Under the pieces are notes generated by a model. That model saw only the letters and a list, made by a program, of their open reading frames with translations. It made no database searches and had not been told where the DNA came from. From NCBI GenBank assembly GCA_964187785.1, contig OZ076409.1, positions 28,398,001-28,462,000 of the forward strand: a stretch of 64,000 nt of DNA. The letters are read 5' to 3'. The DNA comes from Amphiscolops sp. MND2022 (taxonomy: Eukaryota). Numbering within the stretch: position 1 is the stretch's first letter; each line of letters begins with the position of its first letter. The position numbers and the translations under genes were made by a program. Shown here in pieces: positions 14,435 to 53,154 of the stretch.

Positions 14435-15587
14435 ACTTCCTTATTTTGAGATCCCATGTGCCGCTGTTAAAACTTCTGGAAATGAGATATATTAAAATCG
14501 AAACACGTGAAATATGTGTTTATTGGGCAGGAAGTACATGAACAGAAAGTGAGCCGTGATCAAGCCTATTTTTGTTTACATGAAATTGGGAAATCATCCA
14601 CCAGAAAAAGTTCGGGATAGCAACCAAGCAGATTGTGGAAAAACTGAGAAGTTGCAGAGCAGCGAAGTGTGAGGGCACGTACAGCTGGGGGAAAGTGCTT
14701 GACGCAAGGCAAGATGAATTGCCGGGACTGGAAGCCGACGGTGCACAGGAAACCGAAGGTACCCTTAGTATTGATGATGACTGCACGAGGTGTCCCAAAT
14801 AGTAAAGATGAAAGGAAAGATAGTTAAATATGGTTCAAAGACTAACTATCGACTAAATACAAGTGATGATTAAATACTGGATAATAAGAAAGAATTGAAA
14901 ATGGACAATTTGAATGACGAAATGGCAATGTGACAATATATCAAAATTGGATTTCGTGTCTTTACAGTTTGGTGTCAAATTTACAGTTATTTAAAATTCA
15001 CGCCGAAATGTTGATAGAGTTTGCCAGTAATATCTACATTACCCTATTTTATCTCAAAAACTTTGTTATTTCATACAATTATTTCATTACTTTTGTTATT
15101 ATTTCATTGTTTCACAGTCATATTATTTTGTTCCGTATGTGGAGTTTAACCCTTGGATGGCCATTCCGGAAAAGAAGAAACTTTGCTTCGATCTTATTGG
15201 ACGTTTCACGAGAAGCGAGACCGGGTGGCCTTCAACCATATCTTCACCTATTTGAGGATTTCAAGTAGCTATTGAGTGTTAATAAACACTCAGCGAAGTC
15301 CTCGATTCCGCCTTCAAGAAGCAAATACGATATTGAATGTCAACAATGACACGGCCGGCCGCCCATAAAGGGACTACGAGGATGTTGCTGAATATTTTAC
15401 CAAAAAGGGAAAGGAAAACCCGGAAAAAAGAAAAACGAAATTGGGTGAGTCTCCCGCGAATCTGAGCGAGGTAAACTGGCATTCACTCATTTTCGTTCCT
15501 ACCGTTCAGCTCACTACTTTTAACCTGAAATTCAAAATCTGCCCCGTACTTTCATTTCAAAATGTTGCGTAAAAAATACGAAGACGC

Positions 15588-16410
15588 ATGTCTGACTTGT
15601 CTGGATTTTTTCCAATGGACTTCGTGGGAGCCGCCCAATCTGAAAGAGAACCAGCCATCATTGACTTGTCAAGTGACTATGACGATCATATGGACTGTGT
15701 CAGCACGGACTGTGTCAGACTGTGTGTGATTTTTTCGTCAGACGAAGAATCAGAGAACATTGAGCTGATGGCCGGATGTGTAGAAAGACAACTAGCCGAT
15801 CCAATTCACATACCCACCACTGGGACAACAATGGCTCAAAAGAGGAGCGGAACACCTAGGCCAAACCAACCACCGTTCCCCACTTTTGACCGAAGGTATT
15901 TTAATCTCGGACGCGGAAACAGTTTATTAGCATTTGATAATAGGGTAAGGAATAACCACCCTTTTTACAATTGTCGCAACCTAATACCCCGAATGGATTC
16001 CCCGCTGTCTCCTTCTGTCGAAGATAGAAGACCAAACTACGGGTCAAGTGCGCCTAGTTGCTCCTACTCTACTGATACTGTCTCAGTGGAGTCAATCTCA
16101 AACTATTTCAATGGGATGGCTGTGTCAGAAACTCCGGCGCTGGTGAACTGTTCAGACTGTGTGGTCTGCGGAAAGTCAATCCACCAAATACAGTCGGAGG
16201 CGGTCGATGACTACTTAAACAAAACTGTGAATCCAGGCTAAACGTTGGCAGAACAGGAAGCAAGGAGAAGAGCCTTCTTGGATGGAATGTCCGCAGGGAC
16301 GTTGCTTCTCATGCCAGGTGGAGTGTCGCAGGCTGCCGCATGCGATGGAAAATGGTATTCTATCTCTTACAACAACTACAACACTCTCCTTGGGACAATC
16401 CTGCTTGGTG
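15588..16410 (+). pseudogene. ORF-X (unknown protein; acidic N-terminus, DCVVCG motif) running through the PPT into the 3' LTR
   Basis: ORFs 15588-16241 and 16245-16454 are separated by one in-frame stop. Homologous to 53083-53868 (-): DCxVC.G...QI...A...Y...RRR..L.GM..GT...P.GV.QA. Confidence 0.75.
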
Positions 16411-17263
16411 GGATTTCACTTTTGGTGGACAATCACTTTGAAGTCGACCCATAACCATGACGTCATTGTGGCTAAAAATAGTCGGTGCTATTTTTCGAAA
16501 ACCCTTCAGGCTATTTTCAGTAAATGACCCCAGTAAAATTGCTAGTCATGTAAACGCGGATATATAAACACCCGGGAACATAAGTCCCGACACAAATTGT
16601 TTAAACTACATACCGTCCAGTTAAACAACCGTTAAAAAGTTTTGATTTGCAAGACAAAGACTCAATTTGATTCTTCCCTCGTAACCATTTTTGATGCCTT
16701 CAACGAGGAGACAGGAAGCAAAAGCAAAGAGATCTAGTGAGATGGGCATGATGTATTATTTTGAGGACTTAGACGTGATGGTAGGGTGCGATAACAACAA
16801 TCAAATCGAAAGAGAATTTGAAGCTAGCGCTATTGAAGGATCGTCTGTTCAATATGACACTAAGTCTAACCTACCTGCAAGGGAAGATTTTTTCCAAGAA
16901 AATGAGTTTAGGAATCAGAACTATGGAAATAGTTTTCCCAGACATGAAAGCATTTTGGAATCGTTAGAAACTTTTGCAAATGAAGTTAACTTGAGATCAT
17001 CCCAGGAAATGGATTCTTCCATGCTGTCGATGGTAATTGCTCAGATCAATAGAGCCATATGTTCGGCTATATCAGATAGAGTCATTCCAGAAATACGTAA
17101 TATTGTGAGCTCAATGTCTTCATCAGGAAAGAGGGACACTGAGGCTGGCTCGTCCCCTAACAGCCAGGAAAATAGAGGAAGAATGGCTGGGTTGAAAACT
17201 AGAATTACAAAGAAGGACTCTATGTCTGTGATCTACGAGACACAGGAGACTTTGGTTATTACA
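16324..17263 (+). repeat. 3' LTR of copy 1 (internally deleted), with TATA (~16561) and gag-leader ORF from ATG 16694 (MPSTRRQEAK...)
   Basis: TG...CA termini. Start matches the 5' LTR at 4208. ORF 16691-17290 is homologous to the gag N-terminus of copy 2 (38642 onward). Confidence 0.88.
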
Positions 17264-24339: not shown

Positions 24340-26759
24340 CCCAGTGTTCTTAGTCATGAAACCCTTGCCATGATCATGGTAAATCTTGCTAAATCATGAT
24401 TAACCATGGTACCCTTGTCAAGATCATGGCAAACCATGATACATGGAACGCTTGTCAAGATCATGGCAAGATCTTGACAAGATAACCATGGTAAGCCATG
24501 AAAGCTGGTATTACTTGTGCATATTTTATTCTTTTCGCAAAAATTCCTCGTCGTCTGCAATTTCTGAATTAGCCATTGTAATAACTTCGGACATAACTTT
24601 TATTGATGGAAAATAGTTTTTTAATTGAAAATTATCCAAAACTTGCTCAATAATTTGCTGCACCTATTGACCGAGTTTTGTTACTTGAGAGCACGGCATT
24701 GCTACTACCATCATAAATTATCATACAAAGCAAACTCGGAATCAAGTTATTGCAACTTGCAGGTTGGCAAAATCGGTGTGAAAACCAACTTTTCTAGCTA
24801 TGATTTGTTTACAATTATGCAAATTATGCTATTACCTTATCTATTGAGGTAACGGTTTCTAATTACTGAAGTTCGATAATGCAGTAAAAAGTTATAATTG
24901 TCGGAGCAAAAACACTTTCCTATAATGTCTTCTTGAGTATCAGTTTTTCTTCTGTTTAACAGTAGGCATGTCTGTTCTTTGGTCCGAAAAAATCTCTAGA
25001 TACTAGTTACAATTTGGAAATGAGAGCTCTGAATTTTCCAAAAATTTCGCTAATGGTACCATGGAACCCTTGACAAGATCATGGTTAATCATTGTTAGCC
25101 TTTGCACGATCTTGCATGGCCATGGTATCCTTGCCACGATCATGGCAAAAACATTGCAAGATCTTGGCAAGGTGTCGTGGTATCCCCTACAGTCTAGGGT
25201 ATTTAGAGAACTATCTCTAGAAAGGGGTTGACTGTTAGAATTTATTTGAATTGTGTTTTGGGTATTTCCCCAAGCACCATGGTGCTTTCTACCTTCGGTG
25301 TTCTTGCTCAGTCTACTAGACCGTGAGTCCACATTTGTCCCTAACCCACCAACTAGACCTGACAATGAAGTTTGTAAAGGAGGAAGGATAGTTTCTTGAA
25401 TCGCAGAGCTTATTGAATCTGTAATTTGTGTGTTCAAATCTCTTTTAAGTTCATCTAATCTTCTCGACTTTTGCTGTGATAATTCAGTACCAATAAATCT
25501 GGACGTATCTATAGTTACTTCAATTTCAATCCTTTTTTCAGTGTTCAATAGTGATCTAAAGTCTTCCACAATTTCTAGCCTTGTCAGTCCTGGCCGAACG
25601 ATTTCCTGGATAATTACCCAGCATAACAATCATATCCTCTAAATCAGACATCACGTCCGAGGGCCTTTAGCGCTTTTCCTTAGCTTTCTGCTTTCTAGTT
25701 GAAGGCATTAGTAGAAGTACTTTTGGAGCAACAGGTAATTGTGGTTAATCTATATCAACGAACAGAACTGACTATTATCAACAACTAATGCAATTCCAAA
25801 ATTGCGTTTAACTGGTTGATTGGGACTGTAGGTCAAATGGAGTTTGTAACACTTGTCTATCAGAGATTCGTATCATAAGGTGCATAATCAATTGTAATCC
25901 CGTGGCCTAAGTGGCCCTTGTATAAATACTCGGGAGAGCATGACAAGCAGTTTTCCTAGTGTCATATTTCTAAAAATAGCATCGATTCAGGAGAAGTGTT
26001 CTTCAGGACCTTACGTCACAATTGCATCACTAAACTATGAATAGAAATAGTCCGGGTCATGGACGTGTCAACTATTGAGGGGGTTGTGAGGGCGGCACTC
26101 CTTTCAAGTCTGGTATTTGTGATTTACTTTTATTTACATAGGTAACAGCCAGTGAAAATATTACATGCACTTCATGTTAAGGACCGGTGGTCCAAATAAC
26201 TAATTGCGGAGAATGAAATTTGCACACTACTAGCACATAAAAGTGAATGCTTAGCGCTGATTGGATAATACAAGGGGGACTACGCGTCCGACTTCACTAA
26301 GCGAGGCGTCAACTCGAACGCGTGTCCTTTCAACTATACACTTGTTTACTATTGTATTCACAGCTAATTCAGCTAACATTGATTCTCTTACATTCTGGTT
26401 TACATGACAATAATACATCACTAACATGAAATGAATATACACTGCATTTTACATGTAAGATAGGGTGAGATGATTAATAGGGTTGGTCATACTTAGGTAA
26501 ACGGACCAGTAGTCTTTATGTTTGTAAAATGCATAGAAAATCAGTTTATAATTAGTAAGGGTTCAAAATAAGGGTTTGAATGTGGACCGGAAGTTCGTAA
26601 GGCCTACAGTGGCAAAACTCCTGGAGGTAGTACGTCATTTGATTGTTCGTTTGGGGTTACTTGATAATCATTTCCATCACAGGCGGTCGCCTGTGACACA
26701 AGGCTAGCAAGGAACTTGTTATGGATCTTGGCAAGGGTACCATGGCTTCGAACACTGGG
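24340..26759. mobile_element. CMC/EnSpm-type non-autonomous element (CCC...GGG ends, 2-bp TSD)
   Basis: TIRs CCCAGTGTTC...GAACACTGGG. Flanks GT/GC. Dense CATGG/GATCTTG subterminal repeats. Confidence 0.8.
25173..26698 (-). mobile_element. Solo LTR (1526 bp) of the same Gypsy family
   Basis: Minus strand TGTCACAGGCGACCGCCTGTGATGG...CCACGACA. Perfect TSD CAAGG. The ORF-X tail (VSQATACDG...PPGVLPL*) is at its 5' end. The gag leader MPSTRKQKAK starts at ATG 25708. Confidence 0.93.
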
Positions 26760-31402: not shown

Positions 31403-34400
31403 GGACCATGTGATCTATTCCCCCCCAGGTACACCTTGTTAGGAATTCCCCCCCCCCCCCAAACGAAAACGGCTTTTTCACAAGTATATTAAATATTGAA
31501 TGAATAAAACAAGTTGATATGCTTACAAATAAATGTAAATTTGTAGGTAAATTTAATGTAACCATTTTAATAACTGAATATTGCTTTGGGCGAAAAAACT
31601 TCCCGTGCGAATAGAAAAAATACTTTTGAATTTCGCACAATTTCCATTTTGACACTTCCAGCCAAAACCATCTTTGACTTTTTTATATCTGTCACAGACC
31701 GCTCCCGGTCTGGGTTGCCATTGCAGACGAGTGGGGATCGGAAGAGGCCATGGGTGCAGCCTGCGATTCCCAAATGGTGTTTCAATTACTAACTTGAAAA
31801 CTTTAAACCCTAATCTTAAATAAACTGTGACAGGAAATACGAAAACGTACGTCTAACTTGCGCAAAGTTTGAATGAAAATGAGAACAGAAACTAAAATGA
31901 GCCAAAATGATTTCATACACTTCCGGTAGAACGCCTTTATCACGTCGAAATAGAAACATTCGCCACCTGAAAGCTAAACTAAAATACGTTTAGAATAATG
32001 CTCATGCACTGATCTAAATATCCAAAAGGAAAACATCAATTTTGTCTCTGAGGAAAACATCAATCAGACCTAAAACAGAGATTACTTTGAGATGGCACGC
32101 CGAACTATTTATGCCTCTTCTGAGAAAAGGCAGCTTACTTGCACTTTGAACGGCAATTAATGTAAAATAGGACGATACCGCGTCGCTGAGTAAACAAATA
32201 TTGAAAGTACATGCAAATATTACTATAATTGTGACGTCAGCATTCCGTTAACTAGTTAACAAGGTAGAAAGTATTCCAATTCAGACGTCAGCGTGACGTC
32301 ACAGCTATGACAGCTAGCTAGATTTCATTCCTAATTTACGTCCTCGCTACGTCCACAATGCTAGACTAAGCCTAATATTAATACGTACGTCCGCATTACG
32401 TCCAATATCCAGCGAGACAAGATGCTTTAGTCCATCCAAAGGATGAAATAAATATTATTCAAATTATTCGGTACTAGGGATGCGTTTAAAGATCTTGGGA
32501 ATTTAACAAAACGAATAATAAAAGATTTCAGGATCAACGCTACATTTCAGCCAAACAAATTCCTTACCGGTTAAAAATTTCCCTAAATGCTTAATTTGAA
32601 ATGAAACCTTCTGTATAATATGCGCGAAAAGTCACAGTTTATGATCACTATGGAAATAGACTGAGTATTTTGTATTGAAAACATATTTTTACATGTTCGT
32701 GTTTCGCATTTTATACTACCCAATGTACAAGCGGCAGTTCATTTGATGCCCACTCAGACGATGGCCCGTCGTCCCCCATTTTCAAGACCAATCAGTTATA
32801 TGTCTAAAATTGTTGCATTGTTCATATGTATTATGTCATGAGTGATTAACCCTCGTTATTAAATGCGTTGTAATACTGAAGTTAAATGTTAAAGAGGTAT
32901 TTAAAGTTTTGTTCTTTTGGTTTGTTTGTAAAATATCGACGTCACGTCGACAATTGTTTCGAGTCCAATAATGTTGCTATACGTGCAAAAGAATATTTAA
33001 TGACAGTGTATGAATGTTGAATTAACGCCACAATGTCGCTAAATTAGTGTCTTTCAGTGAAAGTACCAATAACCGAATTTAAGGTGCTAAATCAGATAAT
33101 TTGGCTTTCCTATTCAATTGGCGCTTACGTTTCGCTATCCCTTTTTCATTAAATAATAATCACCCAGTTTAGAATTAATTTGGAAATTGTTGCTATTTCT
33201 ATAATCTCGCCTTTATTCTTTCCTAGCATCATCGGAAATTTCAGTGTTGAAAACATTAGTCATGGCTTTTTTCTCAAGTTAAAATTCAAAACCAAGTATT
33301 AGTTGTTCACGTCAGCGTCATCTCAGCGTCAATTTCTAACGAACCAAGCAGTAAAACGGGGAAGCATTTCCGGTTTGACAGACTGAAGTGATATCTACTT
33401 CCTGCTTGGGAGGAAATAAAAAGGACGCCGGGATGAAATGATATGATTATGCTTGATGACTAATATAGGATGAAGGTCATCGTGTCTGAAAAATTGACGA
33501 AAAGTCGACGTAAAATTGAGAACAAATGATTTTTCACCGAAAATACAGGAAATGACTAATTGTTCGAAGGTAATTAAGATTTTTAACTCGTGATCAAATG
33601 ATGCTAGGAGGGTATAGATACGATGATTTTAGTTGGCTGAGGGACTCAGTCTTTTGCAATTGTACAAATCAGTTGAATTCTCAATTTCGCTAAACTCTCA
33701 TTTTCACCTAACTCTGTTAGAAAGGATCTCTGAAAGAAATTCATTTCTTCAGGACAAGACTTTTCTACAACAAAATGTCAACAACAAGAAGCCAGAAAAG
33801 AAGGAATGATCAACAAGAAGGTGATAGAAACGTAAGTGAAGGTTTTGTTTCACCAATAGGATTAGAAATCCCTGTTCCTCAAACCAGGACGTAGAAGTAG
33901 CGGGCCCACCTAGATCAAAATCTCCTCGAATTGAAAATAGTTCCTTGGAGAATTTAAGGGCTTCTTTGAAAGAGGAAATAACTTCCAAAATCAAGAATCT
34001 TCTCATTGAGCCTCAGAAGGAGATGTTGAAGCTTCTAAAACCCGAAACAAGAGAGAATGCTAGAGATAACATCGATGAGGAAATGGAAAACGAAACTAGG
34101 AGTTTTTATACTCCGACAAGATCATTTAGAATAAAATCTACACAAAACGACCCGAATATATGTCGTAACAATATCTTGTCCAAAACAGACAATTTTTGCA
34201 GATGGGACGATTTAAACTTCGTGGCAAAAGACCCAAATTTTTTAAAGGCTGAATGCAAAGTTCGTAGTTTTGTATATATGGAAGTATGTCCGTTTGGAAG
34301 CACATTTCAAAGAATAATGATTGATTTTAACTGTCAATCAATGTATAAGATATGATTATGTCGACATCAATTATTTTATTGGACTAAAATTTCAACGCAA

Positions 34401-37290: not shown

Positions 37291-39226
37291 TGTTGCAGGC
37301 TGCCGCCTGTGATGGTACGTCCGTGACTAATTCTGCAATCGCGCACGAAATAATACCAGGCACTTTGCCTACCTTTTAAATACAAACTACCAAACTTTAA
37401 AAAAAAACTCATATTTGCTTGTTCTTTTTCCTATTTTTATTTACCCATACAATGTTTTATGCATTAATGGAATTGTAATTAGTCTGTTAAAGCAATACAC
37501 TTTGGAAATATCCAAATCAGGCGATTGAATGATGTAGGCTAGTTCAATGTAAAACTGCTGAGATAAATGCAATACAAATTAGAAGCAACTGTAAGGCAGT
37601 ATAGGAAATGTGTTCAAGTGACGTACAGTGCTAATCCGAAAGCGTCACTTGAGCACGTCGTCCTAGCCAATCCTATTGCAGTATTAGTTCTCTTTATTTC
37701 AAGTTATCAATAATGGCCGAGTAGGGCCAGTTGCGTAATATTGCCACTTACAATTGATACTTTAGTCAAAGAGCCGATTCTGGCCACCTTATGTGAAATG
37801 AAAGTAGGAAATCAACCGCCCATATATTTGACTAATAATTATGTACCTGTACCTTTTATGATAAATTATCTTTTGTTCAGTACTAGTATGCAGTTTTGAT
37901 GATTAATTGCCTGTTAGGTCCTTTTGACCATATTTTAATATTAATTGTTCTTTGTTAGGCCATTGGTTCTATTTTGACCAAAACATGTAAAACGCAGTGT
38001 ACTCTTTTATTTTTATTGACGTAAATTTTGTCCTAAACCTCTGAATGCATTGAACGCCTTGTAAATGATTCAGGACGTCTATCTCAGGCTGTTCTGATTA
38101 TTTTGCCTATACCCCATTGGAAATGCAATAATAGAATAATTGGCCAAATTGGGCCTACTTCCATGTTGTATTTTACATTTAACCGTATTTGATGTACTCA
38201 GTCCTGTGTTTTAGCGTTCACGTGGCGGCACGTGCCAGCAATGCATATTTAGTGTATTTGAAGATGAAGTGTTTACATTCCTGAAGCAGTCACACCCCAC
38301 CGGTGATACGTGTGGTACTTGACACTATAGTTTGAACTTTGATGCCGCCCTTGACGCTAGTTATTTTATAGCTCCAAAAAACTAAGATGCAGTTGAAATG
38401 ATCAGGAGTCACGTGTTGTGAAATTGTTTTGATGAATTTTACCCACTAGGAATGTGGTCATGTGCATTTTAAGGAATTTGTTATTTACATTGAGAATGGA
38501 TGTCATTCATGAGGAAATATATATAACCGCTATTTTCCTTGGGATGACACAGTTTTTTAATCCGCTTACTGCTCAATTCAACCTTAAAATATTGTTTTCG
38601 AGCTAAGACTAATTCACTGTTTTATCTCGAGTTCCCTTCAAATGCCTACTACAAGAAAGCAAAAAAAGCTAGAAAATCCAGAGGAATTGAGGTTCTCTCA
38701 GATAAGGAAAATCTAGACATCATACTTGAAGAAAATCATTTTAGTAGAAACGAAAGAGATGAAAGCCTAAACAGCATTCACGCTGGAAGGTCAGAAAGCG
38801 ATTTAGGCGATGAATGTGAAACGAATGATGAGAACAGGTTCTTAAATCGAAGAAATGTCGGTACTAGTATTGATGCCGAATATTGCCAAAATTCGGCTAG
38901 TGGCGATTCTAGTGCAGAGATCAACAGATTGTCGATTGAGTTGAACTCGAGGTTATCAAGAGAATTAAATGAAATTATGAGTAGTGTTATCACCCAGATG
39001 CAAAGGGCATTTAGTAATGCAATCTGTAGTCAAATATTGCCTCAGATTCAAACTGCCCTTAGCTCCAGGTCGGACCATTTGACACAAGGTAGATGGAACG
39101 TTCTGTCTGACAGACCGGAAGTGAACTCCGAAAGGTTCTCCGATGAGAAATATAGAGAAAACTCAAGAAGTAAGCCAATTCATGATCGTCTTAATGATGA
39201 ATCTATAAACACTTGTGCATACGACA
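37291..39226 (+). repeat. 5' LTR of copy 2 (1936 bp; TATA ~38518; gag ATG at 38642)
   Basis: Starts TGTTGCAGGCTGCCGCCTGTGATGG like the other LTRs. Ends GCATACGACA directly before the PBS. Confidence 0.85.
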
Positions 39227-40332
39227 TGATGACAGGAGACAACGAATCTCCAATCGATGCTCCTGAGTTTCTCTCGGGACGAATGCCATCGAGAAGTCAT
39301 CTTCACAGATCCCATGATGCCCTCAACCCCCTGCTCGAACGACAATTTCAGCACAAGAAAGGACCGTTCCGGCCCTCGAACAAGACCCCATCAACAGGCT
39401 AGCTGATGTCTGGACAAGCATGCAGAATCGTCCAACAGCCCAACAGTTTACTATCCGCCGAGTCAACTCAAACACTATGACCTTAGACGGCAAAAGTGAG
39501 AAGTTCGAGCTGTTTGAAGATCTATTCCACACGATGATCAAGATGCAGCCTGATATATCCGAACAGAAGAAAATCAACCAATGCTCTACAAACATCCCGC
39601 AACATTAGCACAGCTAACCGACGAACTCTCGAGGACGTATTAGTCCTATTAAGACGGAAATACGTCAAACCCGAATTGAAGGCAACCGCCCAACACAAAT
39701 GGCACCGTCTGGTATTTGATCCAAATACGACAAAACTACCAGATTTCCTTAACGAGTTGAATCACGGCGCAAAAAAGGCGTTTGGAGACAACGTTCGAAA
39801 GATGATTGACAGTCTCCTATGCGCAAAACTGCCGCCAAAGCTAGAAAGATCAGTCAACATGACCAGATTGGAGAATGGCTCCTATGACGAAATCCTCGCT
39901 CATCTTGAGAGAGAATTGGAGCTTAACGATTTTGAAGAATCTGACGACCTACCAATGGCTTCAATGACTTCCACAGTCGCTAAAACCAAAACAGTCTCAT
40001 CCAATGCACAAATGAGTGACATTACATGCAACTATTGCAAGGAAAAGTGTCATATGGTCAAAGACTGTGAAAAATTGAAAATGAAAAAAAAAGATGCCCA
40101 ACAAGGCAAAACTACCGCGAAAAAAAACATATCCCAAATGCGGGACGTGTGGCAAGACGAACCACCCAGAGGAACGATGTTGACAGGGTGCCGGCGCACA
40201 TCTTAAACCTAAGCGCACTAGGCCCGAGGGTTCATCTGATAATAATCCCGACTCAAAAACCTCAAAACCCCACCAAAATCCAACATCATCCAACTCCCAG
40301 TCTTCCTCCAAGAAAGACGAATCAAAAACTAA
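38642..40332 (+). pseudogene. gag: gag, copy 2 (starts inside the LTR)
   Basis: MPTTRKQKK...; DGKSEKFELFEDLFHTMIKMQP; ATAQHKWHRLVFDP; knuckle CNYCKEKCHMVKDC and a second CGTCGKTNHPEERC. Frameshifted. Confidence 0.88.
39227..39238 (+). promoter_or_regulatory. Primer-binding site TG(A)TGACAGGAG, probably a mutated TGGTGACAGGAG; tRNA-Leu-like acceptor-stem complement (tentative)
   Basis: Lies directly after the LTR terminal CA and is absent after the solo and 3' LTRs. tRNA identity is inferred only. Confidence 0.6.
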
Positions 40333-43300
40333 CTTCACCACGACTCCAGTACGACCAACTAGACTCTGTTCGACAGTACATCAGATCGGACCCTCCAACG
40401 CAAACTTTCCACAATTATAATCAACAATTGATGGGCTACCCTTCGGTTGTCTGTTGCTGGCAGCAACAGATGGACAAAACTATCATCATTACCTATAATG
40501 ATACCTATTTGTTCCAAAAATCAAATCCTGTTTGGGACCCTGATTACACGCCTACCTACACTACAAGATTCAGGCCCATTCCCTTAATTGACGTCTACAA
40601 TCCAACATATATCAACCCAGACTGTGGCAGAGATCCCTAGTGGGACACCGAGCTCTATAACCAGGACCTAATACAATTCCAATATGTCTAGACGACATTG
40701 AGCACTATAATACAACAGTCCAGGAAAATCCTCCAATAACCCATAACAAAACAACAACAAGAGCGCTGATCGAAAATTGGCAGATGAATGACGGTACCAA
40801 CCATCCAGTGTTCCCAAATCCCTTGGGAACCGAGAATTCCGAAAACAAGGAGGAAACGACTCCACAATCATTACTCGATGAGAAACAATTCCAAAACGTC
40901 CTCATTCCCAAAGAAGGTGAACCAGACTGTATACCGTTGTCAACCAATGAAAACCTCAAATGCAAGAAGCGTATATTATATTTCTCAATGGACTTTGGGG
41001 AAGTGACCATAGACGGCCTAAAAGACACTGGGGCATTATCCAAAGCAATTCCTGAAATGGACCTCCGGAAAATTCGACTCCTTTCGCCACAATCCGTTGT
41101 CCGAGAAGGTCCGCCTCCGAACTTTCAAATCATGGTCGCAAATGGGCAATTAGCAAAATGGGCTTAGTACTATCGATCTCAAATTTGAAGTTGGTGACAT
41201 TGAGTTCCATGAAATCTTCATAGTAATGGAGAATTTGACGGGACCAATCATTGGACTAATGTTTCTTCAGAGAAACCATACAGTTTTGGACATGAGGCAG
41301 GGAATTTTTAATTTACCGTTCTTCTCGATGCAGCTCGAAACAGCTGATCACCGAAACTCCAATGTCTTGGAGCCAATCCTCAACCCGACTGAAATCACCA
41401 TTCCACCAAATGACAGAGTCCTAATCAGGACAAATCCCTTACTCTACCCTGAGAACACTGTCAGTGGCATACTGCAACCAAGCGATCCTCTACATGAAGA
41501 AGGCGACATTACCTTTTGCCCAGCTTCGGCAATATATCGATTCCTGTGAACAACTTCACAGATCACCCCTACAAACTCAAGAAAGAACTCCATATTCATA
41601 TTGCCAGTTTCTCTGTCATGATGCCAGAACAAATGAAGTACGTCAAACCGGTTGATCCGGCACCAAGAGCGGGCAGCCCATTATGTAAGCAGTCTCATCA
41701 AGACCAATAAAAACTCACAGAATACAGAAAATTCTTGGTTTCCAACTTCTGAAAACCCAAGTAACCCACAGGAGCACACACCAATCGAGAAACGAATACT
41801 ACGACTCTACAGGCCCTACAGGGCCTTGAGACTCAAGAATCGATCAAAGATGAGCAATTCATGGCAAAATTTCTAGAAAATTTTGATTGGAAAGATTCCA
41901 CTTTAACTACGGACAAAAAAAGCAAAAATTGAAGAACTACTAGAGGAATTCCACGATATTTTTGCCAGACACAGATTTGATATAGGCATGAATGAGGAAA
42001 TCAAGTTAAAAAAGACACTTAAAGACGATTCCCCAGGCTATAGTCAGAGCCTCCCAGCACCAATAAACTTAAAGGAAGACATCATAGTCGAACTAGCCAT
42101 GTTGCATAAATATAGAATAATCACTACCCTACCATTTTCGAAATACGCCAGCCCGATATTTGCGCAAAAGAAGCCAAATGGGAAACTCCGCCTCCTGGTT
42201 GACTTGAGAAAATCAACAACCTAATTTCCGATGATTATACAAACGAAAATCACCCCGTTAGTACCCTAGTTGATGACGCCCAGCATAAGGCTGGCAAAAA
42301 GCTCTTTTGTAAATTAGACTGTTCACAAGCGTATCACTGCCTTCAGATGGCCGACCAACGGTCAATTGAGATGCTAGTCTTCAACTTTGCAAGCCGTACA
42401 TTTGCCTACAGACAGTTGACACAGGGCCTTAGTAGGGCACTGTCCGCATTCTCCAGTTTCATGATGGAATACCTTGATAAAGTCATTAAAGCAGACCAGT
42501 GTGCTCAGTATGTGGACGATATCGGTATCGCAGCCAACGATGCCGACCATCTCATCGCCAACCTGAGAGCAACCTTCAAATGCATTCAGGAAGCAGGCCT
42601 TAAATTGACAATGCACAAATGTCATTTCGGTGCCACAGAAATGTATTTCCTTGGACGAACGATTACCCCACAAGGTGTCAAACCCCAAAAACAGAACGTT
42701 CAAAACTTTCTTGAAAAAACCAAAGTTCCGAAGTCAAAAAAGGCTTGACAACGGTTTTTGGGATTCTTGAATTATCATAAAAACTATGTCCCAAGACTTT
42801 CCGAACGCCTTACGCCATTCTACAAGATGCTGAAAAGTGACGAAAAGGTCCTAGTATCGAGAGAATTGGTTCAACAATTTGATGAAACCAATCGAGCACT
42901 AGACAATTGCTGCGACTTAGCCCTACAACAACCGGTTCCGAACAAACGAATTGCACTGATGACAGATGCAAGTTTTAGTGCTGCTGGATACGCAGTACTC
43001 ATAAAAGGTGACCCAAGTCAGAAAATCAGTTCAATCCGCAAATTCTATGCACCGGTCGCCTACGGATTTAAAACTTTTACCCCCGCCCAGATGAAAATGT
43101 CAATTTATGCAAAAGAATTCCTCGCGATGTACTTCGCATTCCAAGAATTGGGGCATATTTTCTGGGGCGCGCCGAAACCGGTCATCATCCTAACAGACAA
43201 AAAAGCCGTCACACGATTTTTTCAAACCAAAATTGTACCCCAAGCACTGTGGATTGCATGTGACTATGTGATTCAATTCAATTTCGTCATTGCGCACATA

Positions 43301-45504
43301 CCGGGGGCACAGAATACGGCAGGGGACTTTTTGTCCCGCCTGAAAGCTGTTCCGAAAGACAAATTAGTCATGAAACTCAGAGAGGATGTACAAACTGTAC
43401 CAAATGAAATAAATGTACAAGCAGCAGGAGTCTCACAGGAAGAGCAAATCTTCTACATGAATGATGACGATGAGATAGAAGAACAATTTTGGGCGAGGAA
43501 AGAGGCAATCAGGAAAAATCCCGCCATAGAAAAACCTGCTTTAACAATCCGAACGCTCTCCACAAATAGGGTTAAACAATAACCTGAAAAACAAGTCCCA
43601 TTACGGAAAACGAACCAGATAATCATCGAACAATCCAAAGATGCAGTACTTCTGCAATTAAAGACAAAACTCCTTCATGAAGATTACTCAGAAAAGTACT
43701 GCAACAGGATGCTCGTTACCGACATTATTCAAGCAACTTAGAACGAATTGTAGTCAAGGAAGAGATCCTTACCAGGCAATACTTCGATGAAACAGGGAAC
43801 GTAAAGTACCATCAAATTCTTCTCCCGCAGCACTTACTCCAGGAACTGCTCCAGTCCTTTCACGGGACTGCTCAAAAGCACCCTGGCACACCAAAGATGT
43901 TACAGGAGATCAGACAGAGGTATTACTACCCTAACATGGCAAAGTACGTTGAAAAGTGGGTAGAAGGGTGCGAACAATGCGCGAGGGTCAAGCGCGTCCC
44001 AAATGCAACAATTACGCCTGAACTACTTAGTTTGCCGGAATGGGACCTTGAACCCGAAGACGCCTTGCAGATTGACTTATTGCCGAATCTTCCCCAAGTG
44101 GAGGGTATGAAAATGTTCTAACTGCAATTGATGTCTCTCTCGATATCTGTTCGTTTATCCCCTTACGAACGCCTCAGCAATCAATGTAGCGAAAGTGCTC
44201 ATTGATATAATGACGAAACATGCGTATTTGCAAACAACGCTTATTACCGACAAAGGAACTGCCTTCACTTCCACGATTGTCGCGGAAATCTTGCAATTTT
44301 TGGGAATTACACTCAAAAGCGCAACAACTAAACATCCGCAAACGATCGAGAAATTGGAACGAACACATGCTTCACTGAAGACGAATCTAATAATTGCATG
44401 TTGGGAATATCGCAGACAATGGCATAAATATCTGCCATTAGCAGTTCTCATTCACAATACGAGCTATCACGCGAGCATTGGTTGTGAACAAGAAGAGTAA
44501 TCCATGGACGAGTTCCATACAATATGTTGGATCACAAACTTGGAAAAAATCCAAATGACCTGATCACTCCCAAAACTTAATTTGCGAAAGACGTCCAGAC
44601 CCGGACAAAACTCCTGATTGACAAAACAAAGCACAATACTATGCAATCCTACATTAAATACAAGGAATATTATGACCGCAAAGCAAAGCGGCACCACTGA
44701 AAAAAAATAGATTACTGTTTTGTACTGCAGCCAAAAGTGGGTCACCAGGGATCAAAGATCCCGTTCACAGATTATCGTTGCGTTGGACCATTTATAGTCC
44801 AGAAAATTCTACCTAATGAGAACTACATCGTCCACAGCCTCCATACAAATAAAACTCAGATCTTGCACCGAATTCGCCTTAAAAAGTTTGTTCCCAATCA
44901 ACAGCTTGAGGACAATTTCCGAGACGAGCGCTTGCAGCCAGACGAGAAAATTGTCATTCCGCAAGACAACTTATATACAATAACACGGGAAGCAAACTTC
45001 GGTGACCAGCTAGCTACACGAGGCAATGAGCCTATTCCGACTAGCCTGCCGAATGGCGTACAGCCGGTTACGGCAGAAAGGGATCCAAGTGACGCACACG
45101 AGAATGAAGCGGATTATATAATCACGACTGACAGTACAAATGCCGTCAACGGCGCAGTGCAAAATCAGAATGAAAAAATGAAAAGTGACGTCACCAAAAT
45201 AAATGAAGCTAGTGAAGCTGATAAAAATGAAAACTTAGATTGGCCGGATTCGGCCGTTTACCACAAAAATCAAGAACAATATTTTCCAGATCTGTCTGAA
45301 AGACAGGAAAACGATACAAATTTTTCAGAAGGAAATTCTGATAACGGAAACGATGCACAAAATTCTGCAAAAAGGGGAGTTGATATTATCGTGAGCGAAA
45401 TATCGCAAAATGATGACAGAAACGAGAGTCTGAGCCCTAAAAGAGGGAAATTTAACCTCAGGCCTAACCCTAACCCAAACTACTCAGAAGACTTTAGATA
45501 CTGA
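40330..45504 (+). pseudogene. pol: pol, copy 2
   Basis: KDTGA; CAQYVDDIGI; LMTDAS; HGTAQKHP...CEQC; QIDL, ITDKG, LERTH; VGPFIV (GPY/F); ends FNLRPNPNPNYSEDFRY*. Confidence 0.93.
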
Positions 45505-45789: not shown

Positions 45790-47305
45790 AGAAGAAGTCG
45801 CAGACCAAGACGCACTTCTTTCCATCCTTCGCCGTTTGGTATCAGTAGGGAGGGGCGTTAACGCTAACTCATCCACAACAGAATCTTTTGTCCACTGCGA
45901 GTGGAAGACTTCTTAGGGCCTGACAAAACGGCTCGATAGGAGGACTGCAATGATTTGTAGATTTTAGATCGACCAAAAGAATCAACATACTCCCAAGGGT
46001 CATAGGTGGGTGAAAAAGCTGTCCGTCCGAAGGAAGAGGAAAGGAGAGAAAGTTTCTCTAGATTAACATCATCATTGCATTGTGAGACTGAGCCAGAAAC
46101 TTGGCCCATGAAACTCTGACAGGGCAGTACTACATCCGTGAATCTACTCTGATGTCCCACAGTAGAAATTCTGTCAAGCGTGACATCGAGGTATGTAGGG
46201 CTGGGAGTAGTAATGCTCAGACAGCATAGCTTAAACAGGTAAAGGAGATGTTCTCTGTCCTGCAGGAAATCTAGGCCCATTAAGAACTCTATCAGGTCCC
46301 GGGTGGTACTAGTCAAATCGAAATCGGACCCATAACAGATTCTCAAGTGGTCGAGGAGCTGGGTATATTGGTCACGACAAAAGGATTCGTTATGTTTGAT
46401 GACCCCGGAACGAAGACAAAACTTTTGGTACAGCAAGTCAAATGTCGGAGCGCTGCATCCATGGGTTATCTCAACATATTGATCTGGTCGAAAGCTGCAA
46501 CACCTTTTATTATGTCTGCGCTGAGGCCTGTATGCCTCAATACTTCATTGATCAAGTATTGAAGGAAGTGGAGGCAATCACTAACAAAATCGGCTTTGAC
46601 CTTCTCAGCGGTCTTCAGTATGGCGGCCTTCTCCGATTTCTTCCCGAAGTGAGGCCCTTCAGCTTTGGCTTTGCTGGCATTGGCTACGTTGTTGGAAAGT
46701 TTGATACGAAGCATGAAATCTTCTGCTGTCATGAAGGTAGCATCACCCGTGTGGAAAGTTACTAGAAGGAACCAATCATTCTCTAGAGGGGCGGTATCAG
46801 GAGTGTAACTTCTGAGGCAGAGTTGATAAAGGAACCAGCTAGAGTCTCCGCACAGATAGAACGTGGCATCCCGCCTCTGCTGGAGATTCACCACAAAGCT
46901 AGACAAACCTACAAACACAGACTTAATCCTAATCAGGCCATTGGCGAACTCCTAACCCACTACTCTAAGGATACTAACTATCACTGACGTTCCGAGAGAA
47001 AAGCTCGAGCTTAACGACAAAGAATTCGTCGCAGATTAGTGTCCACTCGAAACTCTGTACCTGGAACATGAAACCCTAGTTAGAGCACCTGAACATCCAT
47101 ATGCAGCCTATAGGTGCTAGCATTCTACTAGGGGAAAGAGTCAAATTGATCGCAAATGAATGAAAGTTACTTACTCTGTCCCGAGACCCTTGTCCTACAT
47201 GCCGGGGAGCGTGCACCGTCAGGTAAAGGGTTACTGACTTCCCTTCTGTAACGAGCTCTCGGAAGAGTGTAGGGAGTCCCGAAATGTCCCATTTGCATGA
47301 AGTTA
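45790..47305 (-). pseudogene. C-terminal part of the antisense cargo gene, copy 2
   Basis: ADIIKGVAAFD, LYQKFCLR, CRDQY, HLLYLFKLCCL and YDPWEYVDSFG align with ADIVRVIASFD, IYQIFSLR, CRD*Y, HLYRLFRISCM and GDPWTHVDVFG in copy 1. Confidence 0.8.
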
Positions 47306-50189
47306 TCGCGAGAACATTCTTAATTTCCGAAGTTATCTCTTCTTTCACAGAGGCTCTCAAGCTTTCCAAGAGACTATTTTCAACTCTAGGGGATTTTGGT
47401 CTTGACGGACCGCAATGCTTACGTCCAGATCCGGGGAACAGTGATTTTCTACAACTATTGGCGAAACTAGACTTTCACTTACATTTTCACTGTTTTCTTG
47501 TTGGTTGTTTCTTCTTTTATGACTTCTTGTTGTTGACATGATGGGTGAAGAGATTGACTTTGAATTCTTATTCTGAACTGTATTTTCAACAAAGTTGATA
47601 ATTGAGATGAGAAATTGAAATATCGTAGTACAACTGATTTTCACAGGTGAAAAGACTGAGTCCCTCAACCTACAAAATGCATCGTATTTATACCCTCCTA
47701 ACATCATTTGATCACGACTATATTCATAATTTTCCTCAAACAATTAGTCTTTTCCCGTTTTTCCGGTGAAAAAAAATCATTACGATCCCAAATTTGCGTC
47801 GACATTTGGTCAAATTTTGAGACATGGCAATTCTAATATAGTATTAGTCATCAACTATGATCATATCTTTTCATTCCGGCGTCCTTTTGCTTCCTCCCAA
47901 GCAGGAAATTGATATTACTTTAGTCTGTCAAACCGGAAATGTTTCCCTGTTTTGCTGCTTTGGTTCGTAGGAAAATTGACGCGGAGATGATGCCGACGTG
48001 AACAACTAATACCTGATTTTGAATTTTTACTTAAGGAAAATGCTATGACTAATTCCTAAATTGTGGTTAATTAGACGATGCTAGGGAAGTATTTGGGTTA
48101 ACTAGAAGACAAATATTGTACTAGGAATAAGATAAACATTTACAATTATTAATACAGTAATTAGCACATTGGCAATAATTTTGGTCTGACGAGACAAGCA
48201 CGCCAAGTTTACAAACCAGAACTAAACAAAACAAAACTTCCAGTGGTGATTTCAAAAACATGAATTGGTAGCTCATTTGGAACTAATATGCAACTGAAGG
48301 GGGTTTTCTAGCAAAGTTAACAAGTCTTTGAGTTTCTCCAATTTATATGTCAGCGAGGTGACAACGTCATACAAAAATAAGCTGACAAGTTGAGAATACA
48401 AACTGTTATCAAGCAACGGGTCCTCCTCCAGCTTTGGCTTTGCTGGCATTGGCTACGTTGTTGGAAAGTTTGATACGAAGCATGAAATCTTCTGCTGTCA
48501 TGAAGGTAGCATCACCCGTGTGGAAAGTTACTAGAAGGAACCAATCATTCTCTAGAGGGGCGGTATCAGGAGTGTAAGTTCTGAGGCAGAGTTGATAAAG
48601 GAACCAGCTAGAGTCTCCGCACAGATAGAACGTGGCATCCCGCCTCTGCTGGAGATTCACCACAAAGCTAGACAAACCTACAAACACAGACTTAATCCTA
48701 ATCAGGCCATTGGCGAACTCCTAACCCACTACTCTAAGGATACTAACTATCACTGACGTTCCGAGAGAAAAGCTCGAGCTTAACGACAAAGAATTCGTCG
48801 CAGATTAGTGTCCACTCGAAACTCTGTACCTGGAACATGAAACCCTAGTTAGAGCACCTGAACATCCATATGCAGCCTATAGGTGCTAGCATTCTACTAG
48901 GGGAAAGAGTCAAATTGATCGCAAATGAATGAAAGTTACTTACTCTGTCCCGAGACCCTTGTCCTACATGCCGGGGAGCGTGCACCGTCAGGTAAAGGGT
49001 TACTGACTTCCCTTCTGTAACGAGCTCTCGGAAGAGTGTAGGGAGTCCCGAAATGTCCCATTTGCATGAAGTTATCGCGAGAACATTCTTAATTTCCGAA
49101 GTTATCTCTTCTTTCACAGAGGCTCTCAAGCTTTCCAAGAGACTATTTTCAACTCTAGGGGATTTTGGTCTTGACGGACCGCAATGCTTACGTCCAGATC
49201 CGGGGAACAGTGATTTTCTACAACTATTGGCGAAACTAGACTTTCACTTACATTTTCACTGTTTTCTTGTTGGTTGTTTCTTCTTTTATGACTTCTTGTT
49301 GTTGACATGATGGGTGAAGAGATTGACTTTGAATTCTTATTCTGAACTGTATTTTCAACAAAGTTGATAATTGAGATGAGAAATTGAAATATCGTAGTAC
49401 AACTGATTTTCACAGGTGAAAAGACTGAGTCCCTCAACCTACAAAATGCATCGTATTTATACCCTCCTAACATCATTTGATCACGACTATATTCATAATT
49501 TTCCTCAAACAATTAGTCTTTTCCCGTTTTTCCGGTGAAAAAAAATCATTACGATCCCAAATTTGCGTCGACATTTGGTCAAATTTTGAGACATGGCAAT
49601 TCTAATATAGTATTAGTCATCAACTATGATCATATCTTTTCATTCCGGCGTCCTTTTGCTTCCTCCCAAGCAGGAAATTGATATTACTTTAGTCTGTCAA
49701 ACCGGAAATGTTTCCCTGTTTTGCTGCTTTGGTTCGTAGGAAAATTGACGCGGAGATGATGCCGACGTGAACAACTAATACCTGATTTTGAATTTTTACT
49801 TAAGGAAAATGCTATGACTAATTCCTAAATTGTGGTTAATTAGACGATGCTAGGGAAGTATTTGGGTTAACTAGAAGACAAATATTGTACTAGGAATAAG
49901 ATAAACATTTACAATTATTAATACAGTAATTAGCACATTGGCAATAATTTTGGTCTGACGAGACAAGCACGCCAAGTTTACAAACCAGAACTAAACAAAA
50001 CAAAACTTCCAGTGGTGATTTCAAAAACATGAATTGGTAGCTCATTTGGAACTAATATGCAACTGAAGGGGGTTTTCTAGCAAAGTTAACAAGTCTTTGA
50101 GTTTCTCCAATTTATATGTCAGCGAGGTGACAACGTCATACAAAAATAAGCTGACAAGTTGAGAATACAAACTGTTATCAAGCAACGGG
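46660..50189. repeat. Tandem duplication, 1761-bp unit (46660-48420 and 48429-50189) with 8-bp filler TCCTCCTC
   Basis: Near-identical copies at offset 1769. One substitution seen (GTGTAACTT vs GTGTAAGTT). Confidence 0.95.
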
Positions 50190-51278
50190 CTTACACTGAT
50201 AATATTGGTAAAATAGAAAAAATATTATCATGTAACAAAATACAGTTGTTTATTCAGTATTAAATTAAAAACTGTGATTTTGTTCATGAAATGCGGAAAA
50301 ATCTCACTTAGTCTTTTTCTCAGTGTAATTTCAAATGTATAAAATTTTAGTCGGCCAAGGATAGACGCAACTTTATTAAACTTTACTTTCATCCTAGCTA
50401 CATTCGGTTCAATTTAATGATTTCCTTCACATCGTTTCCGCTAAAATCAGCGTTTATTTTGCTATTCTGGATTGGTTGAAACATTTATAATGATGGATTT
50501 GCGTTAACACGTTGACAAGTTTTCTCAGCTAGTTTGGCAAGCTGTCAAGTTTGACGAGTAGCTGACGCAAATTTCGGATCGAATTTCTGACTAGCTGCCA
50601 AGCTAGTGACGTCACGCCGACGAGTAACTTGGAATGCTTCTATTTAGTTGACTAGGTAGTGATGTAACACTGACGTCACAAGTATAGTAACATTTGCATG
50701 TACCGCCTATTTTTGTTTGTTTAACGACGCACCGACGTCCTAATTCTACTTTAATTGCTGTTCAGAGTGCAATTTAGTTGCCTTTTCTCAGAAGAGGCCT
50801 AATTTCCTCGGTGTCATCTCAATTGTACTTTCTGTTTTAGATCTGATTGACGTTTTTTCTTAGAGATAATTTGGGATATGATTTTCTATAGATTAGTTTG
50901 GGACGCTTTTTTATTCTGTTCCAAGATGCGTTTTAATTTAATTTTCAGGTGTCAAATGTTTCTATTTTGACGTAACAAAAACGTCCTACCGGAAATGCAT
51001 GAAATTGTTTTAGCTCAGTTGTTCCCTGTTTCCATTTTTATTTATAACTTGGGCAGAGTAGACGTATATATTGCATTTTCAGTCACAGTTTATTTTAGTA
51101 TTGAGTATTAGTTTAAAATTAGGTACTGAGTTACCATTTTGGAAAGCGTAGACTGCAGCTGTGCCCTCTTCCCATTGCAATGCGTCTGCATGAGCATCCC
51201 AAAACTCATGGGTCCCCAAAACCTCTTGAGCATCCCAAAACCTCATGAGAGCGAGTTCTGACTGTTGGTTGTGTATCA
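47310..51278 (-). mobile_element. 3'-truncated LTR of the second subfamily, partly duplicated
   Basis: Homologous to 31690-34170. Leader MSTTRSHKRRNNQQE...ESLRASVKEEITSEIKNVL. Probable TG start at 51278. Contains three ~19-bp GAGCATCCCAAAAC repeats near its 5' end. Confidence 0.8.
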
Positions 51279-51598: not shown

Positions 51599-53154
51599 TG
51601 TCGCGACTTTGTTCGCTTGTATAAGAGTCTACTGAACTCTCTCTTGACATCTGTTTACTATTTCACTGTGTAAAACAATTTTGGGTCAATTTTCCCACGT
51701 TTTCTTGGCATTTTCTGCTTCGGGGTTCCGTTGTAGCCCACTGTACCTTCTGTCCTCCACGGTGAAATTGGTCGTCCTTGGGCCTACATGTATCCCGTTG
51801 GACCCTCGGACCGCCATGGTAAAATTAGCTCTCCCCTGCATATCTAACGTGTTTTGAATAGAAGGAAGTACTGTTTCAGCTATTGCAGTTGTAGTTGCAC
51901 TTTGTATCTGAAAATTTAAGCTAGTTTTGATTTCATTAGGTCTCCTTGACAATGGGTTAGAAATTTCCTCGTTGATTATTCTAGTTGTTTCAAGAGTTAT
52001 TTCACTGTTTTCTCTACAATTGTTGAGTAGTGACCTAAAGTCTTCACCTGTTACATTTGAATTTTGTTGAGGCCTGCTTGACTGTGAGTCCGAATTTAGT
52101 TAGTTTTCACTTAGATAATTTCCCTCATTATTTCTTGAATACCTTCCTAACATTACATCAACATTTTCTACATCAGAACTCATGTCTAAATTGTCTTGGA
52201 CACCTTTCCTTAGCCTTTTGCTTTCTAGTAGAAGGCCTTGGAGAAATGATATCATGTCAAATATTGAATTCAAAAACGATAAGTACAAGTCAATGAGAAG
52301 GTTAAGTTAATCACAGTCTCGGATTCAACAGATTGATATTAGCAATTTGTTTGTAGGCAAATTCTTTTCAAAAGGATCCCCAGAGACCTCCAAGCCTCCT
52401 ATTTATAGTTGGGAGGAGATGAGAACGCCGAAATTGCGTGTCATGTTACTAAATACAAATATACCTGTGACTAAAAATAGCATCCCGTAGGGTTACATCA
52501 CCCTGACGTCATCACATCGAATAAAGGGGACTTTACGGTTAAGCCGACAAGGTGGGAAAACAGTTACAACACTTTATATGTATACCCAACACTAATCTAC
52601 AACACTACATGTGCACTAAAGATGAAATTTCATGCTAGCACAGTAAATAACCGTAGCGGACTTTAAGTTCGTGAAGCTACAATCATATATACTACCGGCG
52701 GCAGTCGCGTACTAATTCCACCGTGGCAGACATTCCGTCCACGGAGCTACATACATATACTGCGTTTTGATTGGTCAATAAAATTAGGACAGCGAGTACA
52801 ATTAGCTAGAAGATGCGTTCATTTGAAAACGTTTCCTCTTCCGCATCTAATTGCATTTAACTAATCATTCAATTTTACATTCGAATTATCGAATCACATC
52901 AAATTCCTAGCAAAGAAACAGGAACCTGACTATTTTCTAATCAGTTAAAAACAGCCCGATAATCTAAAATTAAAATTTGTATCGTGGCCGTATGGACCAT
53001 AGGTCTTTTACGGTGAAAATATAAAACAAGAACAATAACGATAAATTTACGTGTGGCACAATGTACTATTAGTCTTTCGTCGTCAAAATGGGTAGGACTC
53101 CGGGTGAGGGTTAGTAATATATCCTTCTAGCTGAGATTTGGTCAGCCTGCAACA
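51599..53154 (-). repeat. 3' LTR of copy 3 (1556 bp)
   Basis: Minus strand GGAG|TGTTGCAGGCTG...GTCGCGACA. TATAAATA at ~52400-52407. Decayed leader (M)PSTRKQKAKER...SSDVENVDVMLG from 52238. Confidence 0.85.

Follow-up and report, generated by a model that had tools for sequence, protein, structure and literature searches.

The locus

We analysed a window of 64,000 nucleotides from Amphiscolops sp. MND2022 (contig OZ076409.1, positions 28,398,001 to 28,462,000) together with predicted proteins from public contigs. The window is a nest of decayed long terminal repeat (LTR) retrotransposons, Table 1, and the one studied here, called copy 2, consists of an LTR, a frameshifted gag and a broken pol. 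According to our analysis, with a probability of roughly 0.87, these are Ty3/gypsy-type elements whose gag starts 0.4-0.6 kb inside the LTR and crosses both the end of the LTR and the primer binding site (PBS) in a constant phase. The part of Gag encoded by the LTR is called the leader below.

A first-pass annotation of this DNA had proposed that the reading frame of copy 2 crosses the LTR end and the PBS. This is what we find: the frame reads ...CAYD/MMTG (the slash marks the LTR end) across position 39226 and the PBS-like sequence TGATGACAGG, and it is open from 38548 to 39402, 284 codons. The copy 2 leader matches a profile of the leaders with an E-value of 7.5e-69. Within the window, neither a 3' LTR nor a target site duplication (TSD) was found for copy 2, and its LTR end was set from relatives; it coincides with the [YH]D/MVTG junction of 83 of the 85 relatives described in the next section. 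The ATG at 38642 does not open this frame, as had been suggested, but lies in another one, open for 24 codons only; the copy 2 leader is frameshifted within its first ~10 codons. No tRNA gene was found in the 64-kb window.

Two solo LTRs carry the perfect TSDs that had been claimed, CAAGG at 25173-26698 (minus strand) and ATATC at 31690-34170 (plus strand), both with TG...CA ends. Both pairs were read from the LTR flanks, and for each solo-LTR end the single candidate with a TSD and TG within 4 kb is the claimed start (chance expectation 0.04 and 0.1). These boundaries do not exclude the open reading frame (ORF) from the LTR. The TSD-defined end at 34170 is the Gag junction, with the ORF inside the LTR, and the last ten bases are the codons C-R-N plus one A. 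Through this coincidence, the boundary seen in the DNA and the junction seen in the proteins are linked, and no further assumption is needed.

The distance from the ATG to the LTR end is 396-640 nt in five LTRs and ~306 nt at the putative LTR near 466, in agreement with the 0.3-0.6 kb first proposed. A leader start had been listed at eight places. At six of these there is an ATG (16694, 33775 and 38642 on the plus strand, 25708, 47539 and 49308 on the minus strand), while the codon near 466 is Leu and the one at 52238 (minus strand) is AGG. The leaders at 47539 and 49308 belong to one 99.9% duplication and start one base away from where they had been placed. With the exception of 16694 (198 codons), the ATG frames in the LTRs of the window close after 13-60 codons. 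Most of these LTRs are thus decayed copies and not intact leader ORFs, and therefore the intact relatives had to decide.

The gag frame of intact relatives crosses the LTR end

We searched proteins of 430-2000 residues with the open stretch of copy 2 and obtained 85 matches (family 1), all of 430-750 residues and spanning the leader; Gag is ~570 residues long. The start follows the pattern M[P/S/H]x[T/K][R/G] in 74 of the 85, and 64 of those 74 also contain a CCHC zinc knuckle. In total, 74 of the 85 hold CCHC, and there are two such motifs in Gag. The junction reads MVTG in 83 relatives, with D as the preceding residue in 82. The leader length could be measured in 73 proteins and is 195 residues in 63 of them and 189 in six.

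For the second lineage the solo LTR (33882-34169) was the query, giving 238 matches of which 120 were listed. A strict junction pattern caught only 22 of these 120, and a looser pattern, which placed all 120, was used. By this pattern, 55 of the 120 listed proteins continue into gag via CRN/MVTG or near variants, after ~132 residues, and at least 15 have an open in-frame extension reaching 44-47 codons further upstream. The two lineages are ~32% identical overall. They have in common an N-terminal M-x-x-T-R-x-Q-K and the junction, where the Met is invariant in both and the codons are xAC-A/TG-GTN-ACN-GGN, i.e. D or N followed by MVTG. A third subfamily, represented by Gag P0451, connects the leader at 16694 with the gag type of the second gag-pol element of the window, element 1.

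In intact relatives the LTR-coded span is 131-198 codons, or 28-34% of Gag, and the gag frame starts this far upstream of the PBS, not after the PBS as in the usual gypsy layout. As part of the same joint reading, the sequences indicate that the LTR encodes the N-terminal 130-200 residues of Gag, which are likely translated from a start within the LTR.

Short relatives leave Gag at the LTR end

Reverse transcription copies R-U5 to both ends of an element, and recombination between LTRs leaves solo LTRs. Every 3' or solo LTR therefore inherits a truncated frame that ends at the first stop in the flanking DNA. Such LTRs would hold the frame up to ...xAC-A, and their products would leave Gag at that point with a next codon that starts with A.

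The short relatives do cease to resemble Gag at the LTR/PBS junction. The family-1 short set has 125 members, namely 119 of the 120 listed (of 154 matches; the window's own protein was dropped) and six cluster members. For 47 of them no junction could be located, three continued into gag and 75 were scored. The next residue is I, M, T, N, K, S or R, the ones with a codon starting with A, in 70 of the 75 proteins of family 1 and in 65 of 65 in lineage 2, compared with a background frequency of 0.42 in these tails (P = 6e-21 and 4e-25, respectively). In three of the five family-1 exceptions the junction had been placed three residues early; these are still counted as misses.

We also compared 20 pairs of a short and a long form, chosen for the equal length of their contigs, which is only a proxy for an origin from one contig. 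Among 10-155 Gag leaders, the best match of the short form is its partner in eleven of the 20 pairs (three ties; 94.7-100% identical), and in the pair P0035/P0133 all 195 leader residues are identical, as expected for the 5' and 3' LTRs of one insertion. The frames are also numerous. One cluster of read-through proteins has 80 members, the 15 listed each with a different tail, and the leader profile matches 1,100 representative proteins.

Conservation and predicted structure of the leader

The leader diverges much faster than the remaining Gag, with a median identity of 58% versus 90% (1,378 pairs, 53 full-length proteins). The divergence is uneven: among 13 diverse leaders, residues 1-15 are 96% identical, residues 16-30 80% and residues 91-135 76-87%, while the linkers are 34-47% identical. 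The leader profile finds the LTRs with leaders at 16694, 25708 and 52238 (E-values 5.6e-16 to 3.7e-5), none of which was linked to the copy 2 LTR by BLASTN. Two lineage-2 LTRs, compared over 63 codons, have 15/6/22 mismatches at codon positions 1/2/3 (P 0.012); in two blocks further upstream the counts are 5/6/5 and 1/4/2. Judged from such sequence comparisons, the leader is under constraint at the protein level.

In family-1 proteins such as P0029, P0067 and P0082 the internal Gag is 95-96% alike and the leaders just 56-60%. This hints that subfamilies have exchanged LTRs, by which the N-termini of Gag would be swapped.

AlphaFold2 predicts one confident helix in each leader, at residues 89-142 (predicted local distance difference test, pLDDT, 68-84) and 56-88 (pLDDT 65-78), with the rest disordered. 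The description of the leader as basic and coiled-coil is only partly adequate: the first ~15 residues are basic and one long helix is predicted, but whole leaders are net acidic, and we rejected the term basic for the entire leader. No convincing Pfam match was found for the leader, and a homodimer prediction for leader residues 78-150 gave a score of 0.02, which is no answer.

The capsid was located in the model of the lineage-2 Gag P0379, at residues ~186-350. There, the top 34 of 48,161 chains found by VIA-align are all capsids, of retroviral, retrotransposon or domesticated origin (Z 5.1-7.6; for the best match Z 7.6, root mean square deviation 3.8, 88 residues aligned). Together with the positions of the knuckles, this places capsid and zinc knuckles downstream of the LTR. 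Foldseek found no match at E<=0.001 for either model, and for the second one it listed the capsids of PNMA2, Arc and murine leukaemia virus with E-values of 0.04-0.4. For the family-1 model VIA-align returned mostly generic long helices or coiled coils (Z<=5.8), which is little informative.

Promoter and proposed mechanism

A strict TATAWAW is present 120-230 nt upstream of the start in four of six LTRs, compared with a background of 5.7%. In the LTRs with leaders at 16694, 33775, 38642 and 49308 there is no ATG in the last 97 nt before the start. AATAAA or ATTAAA has no shared position among the LTRs; two of them have AATAAA 41 and 74 nt before the end.

In the proposed mechanism, the RNA would start ~90-190 nt before Met1, behind the TATA-like box, so that R+U5 (strong-stop DNA) would measure ~520-730 nt. 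Translation would run from the leader ATG through the att end and the PBS, the terminal ACA and the TGG of the PBS fixing the codons D/N-M-V. The leader, with its basic tip, one long amphipathic helix and disordered linkers, may act as an N-terminal extension of Gag for oligomerisation or localisation. The earlier statement that U5 is coding is kept in this form: coding sequence makes up the 3' part of the LTR, be this U5 or a long R, and gag has its start there and extends across att and PBS.

A probable second coding overlap at the LTR start

The start of the LTR is also crossed by a frame. In element 1, a sense ORF after pol with a CxxC motif runs in frame into the likely 3' LTR at 16324, and a homologue of it lies upstream of the LTR that starts at 53154 on the minus strand (36% identical over 67 codons). 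Both LTR starts are preceded by a short purine-rich run (..GTGGAG). A sense frame is open 29-44 codons into five of six distinct LTR starts (four of five independent ones, P 0.014), and it ends near PG[T/V]LP in three LTRs. From these frames, coding sequence is probably present at both LTR ends.

Between pol and the 3' LTR, both elements contain long antisense frames (11141-14423 in element 1 and those of copy 2, Table 1, all on the minus strand), which are 26-49% similar when translated and also resemble 58542-60701 on the plus strand. On this similarity, they are a candidate accessory gene. Pfam gave nothing convincing for the sense ORF or for the antisense frames.

Are the solo-LTR frames functional?

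According to the first-pass annotation, each solo LTR is a promoter with an ORF that runs into the flanking DNA and could seed fusion genes or dominant-negative Gag fragments. Frames of 130-200 codons are indeed found in many database copies, but the tails are random in length and most leaders in the window are decayed. In family 1 the median tail is 14 residues versus 14 expected, and eight of 75 tails reach at least 50 residues (11% expected). Apart from two pairs these tails are mutually unrelated. The tails of lineage 2 are biased towards greater length by the length floor of the search and were left out of this comparison.

The LTR frame might also function as an independent gene. In this case 3' and solo LTRs would be transcribed, and the leader would act in trans, restraining the assembly of Gag, or join host fusions. 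This can coexist with a gag start inside the LTR. In its favour are the many intact read-through frames (75 and 65 scored, the large cluster and the profile matches described above) and the TATA-like box and ATG-poor leader that travel with each LTR. There are also a few long in-frame fusions. In P0373 a lineage-2 leader is fused to a tail of 443 residues with no Pfam match, and in P0369 one is joined to the apparent leader of a further LTR family; these two longest fusions are single database entries. Precedents exist as well, since excerpts of two papers describe solo MaLR LTRs that give a promoter and an AUG to a new mouse gene (PMC5538554) and a truncated Ty1 Gag that restricts transposition (PMC4974528).

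Against a gene of its own, the tails behave as random sequence, no convincing extra domain was found by Pfam in ten read-through proteins with short or long tails, and the RNA could end at a polyA site of the LTR, ahead of the frame or inside it. The early closure of most leaders in the window points the same way. The seeding of fusion genes thus finds no support, given the random tails and the lack of a convincing gained Pfam domain. There is little to favour a dominant-negative role, since neither capsid nor zinc knuckles are part of the LTR-coded piece, unlike Ty1 p22, which is the C-terminal part of Gag. We consider the read-through frames of solo and 3' LTRs most likely a passive by-product, and a function of the free leader, or a second life of the LTR frame as a gene, unlikely.

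A related and equally doubtful proposal is that the LTR is a doubly coding, portable mini-gene, with the C-terminus of an accessory ORF in its 5' part, a promoter, ATG and helical Gag module in its 3' part, and its copies translated. If so, hundreds to thousands of 3' and solo copies would make leader peptides with random tails that temper the element's own assembly, or fusions with neighbouring frames, and the genome would be a large natural screen for gene birth.

Weighing the evidence for a gag start inside the LTR

Several observations weigh against a start of gag inside the LTR. The relatives are predicted proteins that were found because their frames are open, and the whole case is built on the DNA of the window and on predicted proteins. 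The 47 short proteins without a locatable junction count against it, and in nine of the 20 presumed same-contig pairs the partner is not the best match. The exact start in lineage 2 is uncertain, blurred by the 44-47-codon upstream extension. The window for the TATA-like box was picked after the hits were known; two LTRs match only with one mismatch, which at a background of 51% is uninformative, and in two decayed copies (25708 and 52238) there are ATGs between box and start. Both structure models are of low confidence overall (mean pLDDT 39.8 and 50.3) and all capsid Z-scores are below 8.

Finally, the conserved junction ATG could start a leaderless Gag. Gag would then be translated mainly from this or another internal Met, and the upstream frame would be a rarely used extension. 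The invariance of the junction Met in both lineages fits this, as do the fast divergence of the leader and its mostly disordered prediction. However, this ATG is forced by CA plus TGG whether it is used or not, and upstream of the junction there are several ATGs, in frame and out of frame. Moreover, no part of the leader is better conserved than Met1 with the basic tip, which both lineages have, and frame and length are kept across subfamilies that are ~50% identical. We regard a mainly leaderless Gag as quite improbable.

Under a further reading, what look like LTRs would in truth be short LTRs with a duplicated internal piece, or assembly products. This is suggested by the lack of a window element with two complete matching LTRs, by the near-identical tandem duplications, which may be assembly artefacts, and by the short purine runs, but it is already largely refuted and highly improbable given the TG...CA ends and perfect 5-bp TSDs of two solo copies, unique within 4 kb, the common codon at which 140 short proteins, each set differing in its tails, break off and the TGG that follows directly in intact Gag.

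Other features of the window

Table 1. Retrotransposon features in the 64-kb window, with positions counted from the first base of the window.
Feature	Position	Strand	Remarks
ORF across putative LTR end (...CCGACA, 768)	432..839	+	same codon phase
Element 1	4208-17263	+	flanks GAAGG/AAAGG, 4/5 bases match
Remnant of element 1 5' LTR	4208..4291	+	92% identical to 16323-16407
Sense ORF after pol of element 1	15573..16454	+	CxxC motif, one stop; crosses purine run and LTR start 16324 in frame
Likely 3' LTR of element 1	16324..17263	+	leader 16694; homologous to N-terminus of Gag P0451; profile E 5.6e-16
Solo LTR, 1526 bp	25173..26698	-	TSD CAAGG; decayed leader from 25708; profile E 3.7e-5 and 4e-6
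Solo LTR, lineage 2, 2481 bp	31690..34170	+	TSD ATATC; leader 33775-34170 ends at CRN/MVTG junction
Copy 2	LTR 37291-39226, gag to ~40332, pol to 45504	+	
5' LTR of copy 2, 1936 bp	37291..39226	+	TG...ACA; start motif common to TSD-bounded solo LTR and other LTR starts
TATA-like box, copy 2	38518..38526	+	122-124 nt upstream of gag ATG; putative promoter
LTR-coded N-terminal part of Gag, copy 2, 585 nt	38642..39226	+	close to the family's usual 195 codons
PBS-like sequence adjoining copy 2 LTR	39227..39236	+	MVTG of relatives implies TGG right after CA
Internal gag of copy 2	39227..40332	+	spacer, capsid, two CCHC knuckles; several frameshifts and stops
Broken pol of copy 2	40330..45504	+	protease, weak dUTPase-like stretch, reverse transcriptase (YVDD), RNase H, integrase (H2C2, rve, p58 C-terminus)
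Antisense open frames after pol, copy 2	45864..46951	-	similar to 11423-12036 (-) of element 1
Truncated lineage-2 LTR	49079..51250	-	leader 49308, duplicated at 47539; start coordinate approximate
LTR with decayed leader from 52238	51599..53154	-	AGG for ATG; preceded by homologue of 15573 ORF; profile E 6.3e-9
Homologue of 15573 ORF	53344-53110; duplicate 56753-56520	-	

The domain order of pol is protease, reverse transcriptase (RT), RNase H and integrase, with RVT_1, RT_RNaseH, Integrase_H2C2 and rve found in sequence by Pfam. The protease has a DTG motif near 41026, and the relative P0064 has an aspartyl protease Pfam match. A weak dUTPase-like match lies between protease and RT (~41370-41700 in the window; residues 546-627 of P0064, E 0.036). 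Among the structures of the PDB, the copy 2 RT matches 8r0s, 7kse and the Ty3 RT (4ol8, 7q5b) with E-values of 5e-8 to 5e-4, and in Atlas it matches generic RVT_1 clusters only. The C-terminus of Gag is ...SKN in 53 of the 85 family-1 relatives, encoded on an A-rich run right before the stop, and the overlapping pol uses a different frame; this gag/pol overlap probably contains a -1 frameshift site, at ~40320-40332 and ~5565-5580 of the window.

Gag and pol of element 1 and copy 2 are 66-68% identical (BLASTN), and the 5' LTR of element 1 is mostly deleted. The leader near 466 has no match among the fetched proteins, and its LTR is assigned by analogy only. The LTR at 51599 (minus strand) is followed by TGG and preceded by the 3' internal region of an element, so that it may have an internal region on either side. 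No MVTG is read in the sequence that follows this LTR.

Two tandem duplications, 46656-48420/48425-50189 (1.77 kb, 99.9%) and 52391-55803/55800-59209 (3.4 kb, 98.5%), may be recent events or assembly artefacts. Clustered short direct and inverted repeats at 62491-63278 resemble a miniature inverted-repeat transposable element or a satellite, and pieces of another dispersed repeat are found at 23213-23806, 30656-31385 and 34558-34908, split around the solo LTR at 31690-34170. No related DNA locus was found in viral and JGI metagenome contigs.

Comparison with known systems

The closest parallel is Ty1 (Saccharomyces cerevisiae, Ty1/copia), where, in the excerpts available, GAG starts in the 5' LTR 40 bp before its end (PMC10512236) and the PBS is inside the GAG frame (PMC4974528). 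Both features recur here. Ty1 had been named as a precedent with a much shorter overlap, and this is correct: 40 bp compared with 396-640 nt, a factor of 10-15. In contrast to Ty1, the LTR part contains a conserved predicted helix and the order of pol is that of gypsy and not of copia; membership in Ty1/copia was rejected since the integrase follows RNase H.

With Ty3/gypsy (Metaviridae) the elements share the TG...CA LTRs, the 5-bp TSD, the capsid fold, the CCHC knuckles, the order of pol and, among solved structures, the match to the Ty3 RT. They differ in the gag start far inside the LTR and in the extra antisense and sense frames after pol. In Ty3 the PBS segment adjoins the 5' untranslated region and is not in GAG (excerpt of PMC4974528), and the gag of soybean Diaspora starts 873 bp after the LTR (excerpt of PMC1142308).

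BEL/Pao elements have a Gag with three knuckles and an RT of YVDN type. We rejected this assignment, as there are two CCHC motifs and YVDD; the only pointer towards it is DUF1759 on P0379 (E 1.8e-9).

Overlaps with the other end of the LTR are also described. In CRM centromeric retrotransposons polyproteins run into the 3' LTR, and in one case the pol of a pufferfish V-clade element does so, according to excerpts of PMC3059260 and PMC11117352, respectively. As far as the CRM excerpt goes, group A resembles the ORF crossing the LTR start at 16324, but theirs is an integrase tail at the U3 end, whereas the main overlap here is the N-terminus of Gag at the opposite end, with a distinct ORF behind pol overlapping the U3 end. 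In the mouse, the protein-coding gene D6Ertd527e arose from a MaLR/ERVL solo LTR, which can bring along a promoter, a start site and an AUG (excerpt of PMC5538554). There, a short first exon is joined via a splice donor, while here 130-200 codons that include a structured helix would be added by plain read-through.

Long LTR frames, present in both copies, are also found in MMTV sag and HIV nef, which are separate genes in U3 expressed from the 3' copy. The present frame differs: it follows the TATA-like box, and gag begins with it.

In the literature we did not find an LTR-overlapping gag of 130-200 codons, although subscription papers and repeat databases were mostly outside this search and a precedent may exist; the excerpts of one LTR survey (PMC3601003) contain nothing on an LTR-coded gag. 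We conclude that the architecture is real, well supported and unusual, i.e. the arrangement of Ty1 in a gypsy lineage, 10-15 times longer and with a conserved structural module.

Implications

The textbook picture of a non-coding LTR is stretched by these elements, in which the same bases serve as att, primer site and promoter-proximal region and also encode a quarter to a third of Gag. The lineages that share this arrangement are old enough to be only ~32% identical. The part of Gag encoded in the LTR follows the rapid turnover of the LTR itself, so that an exchange of LTRs would swap Gag N-termini.

For the annotation of such genomes this means that gene callers will list hundreds of spurious orphan genes of 130-250 residues in the solo LTRs, and that gag may be misplaced by LTR finders. 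The read-through frames, with the same N-terminus, random tails and datable insertions, are a ready test set for the seeding of genes by transposons versus self-restricting Gag fragments.

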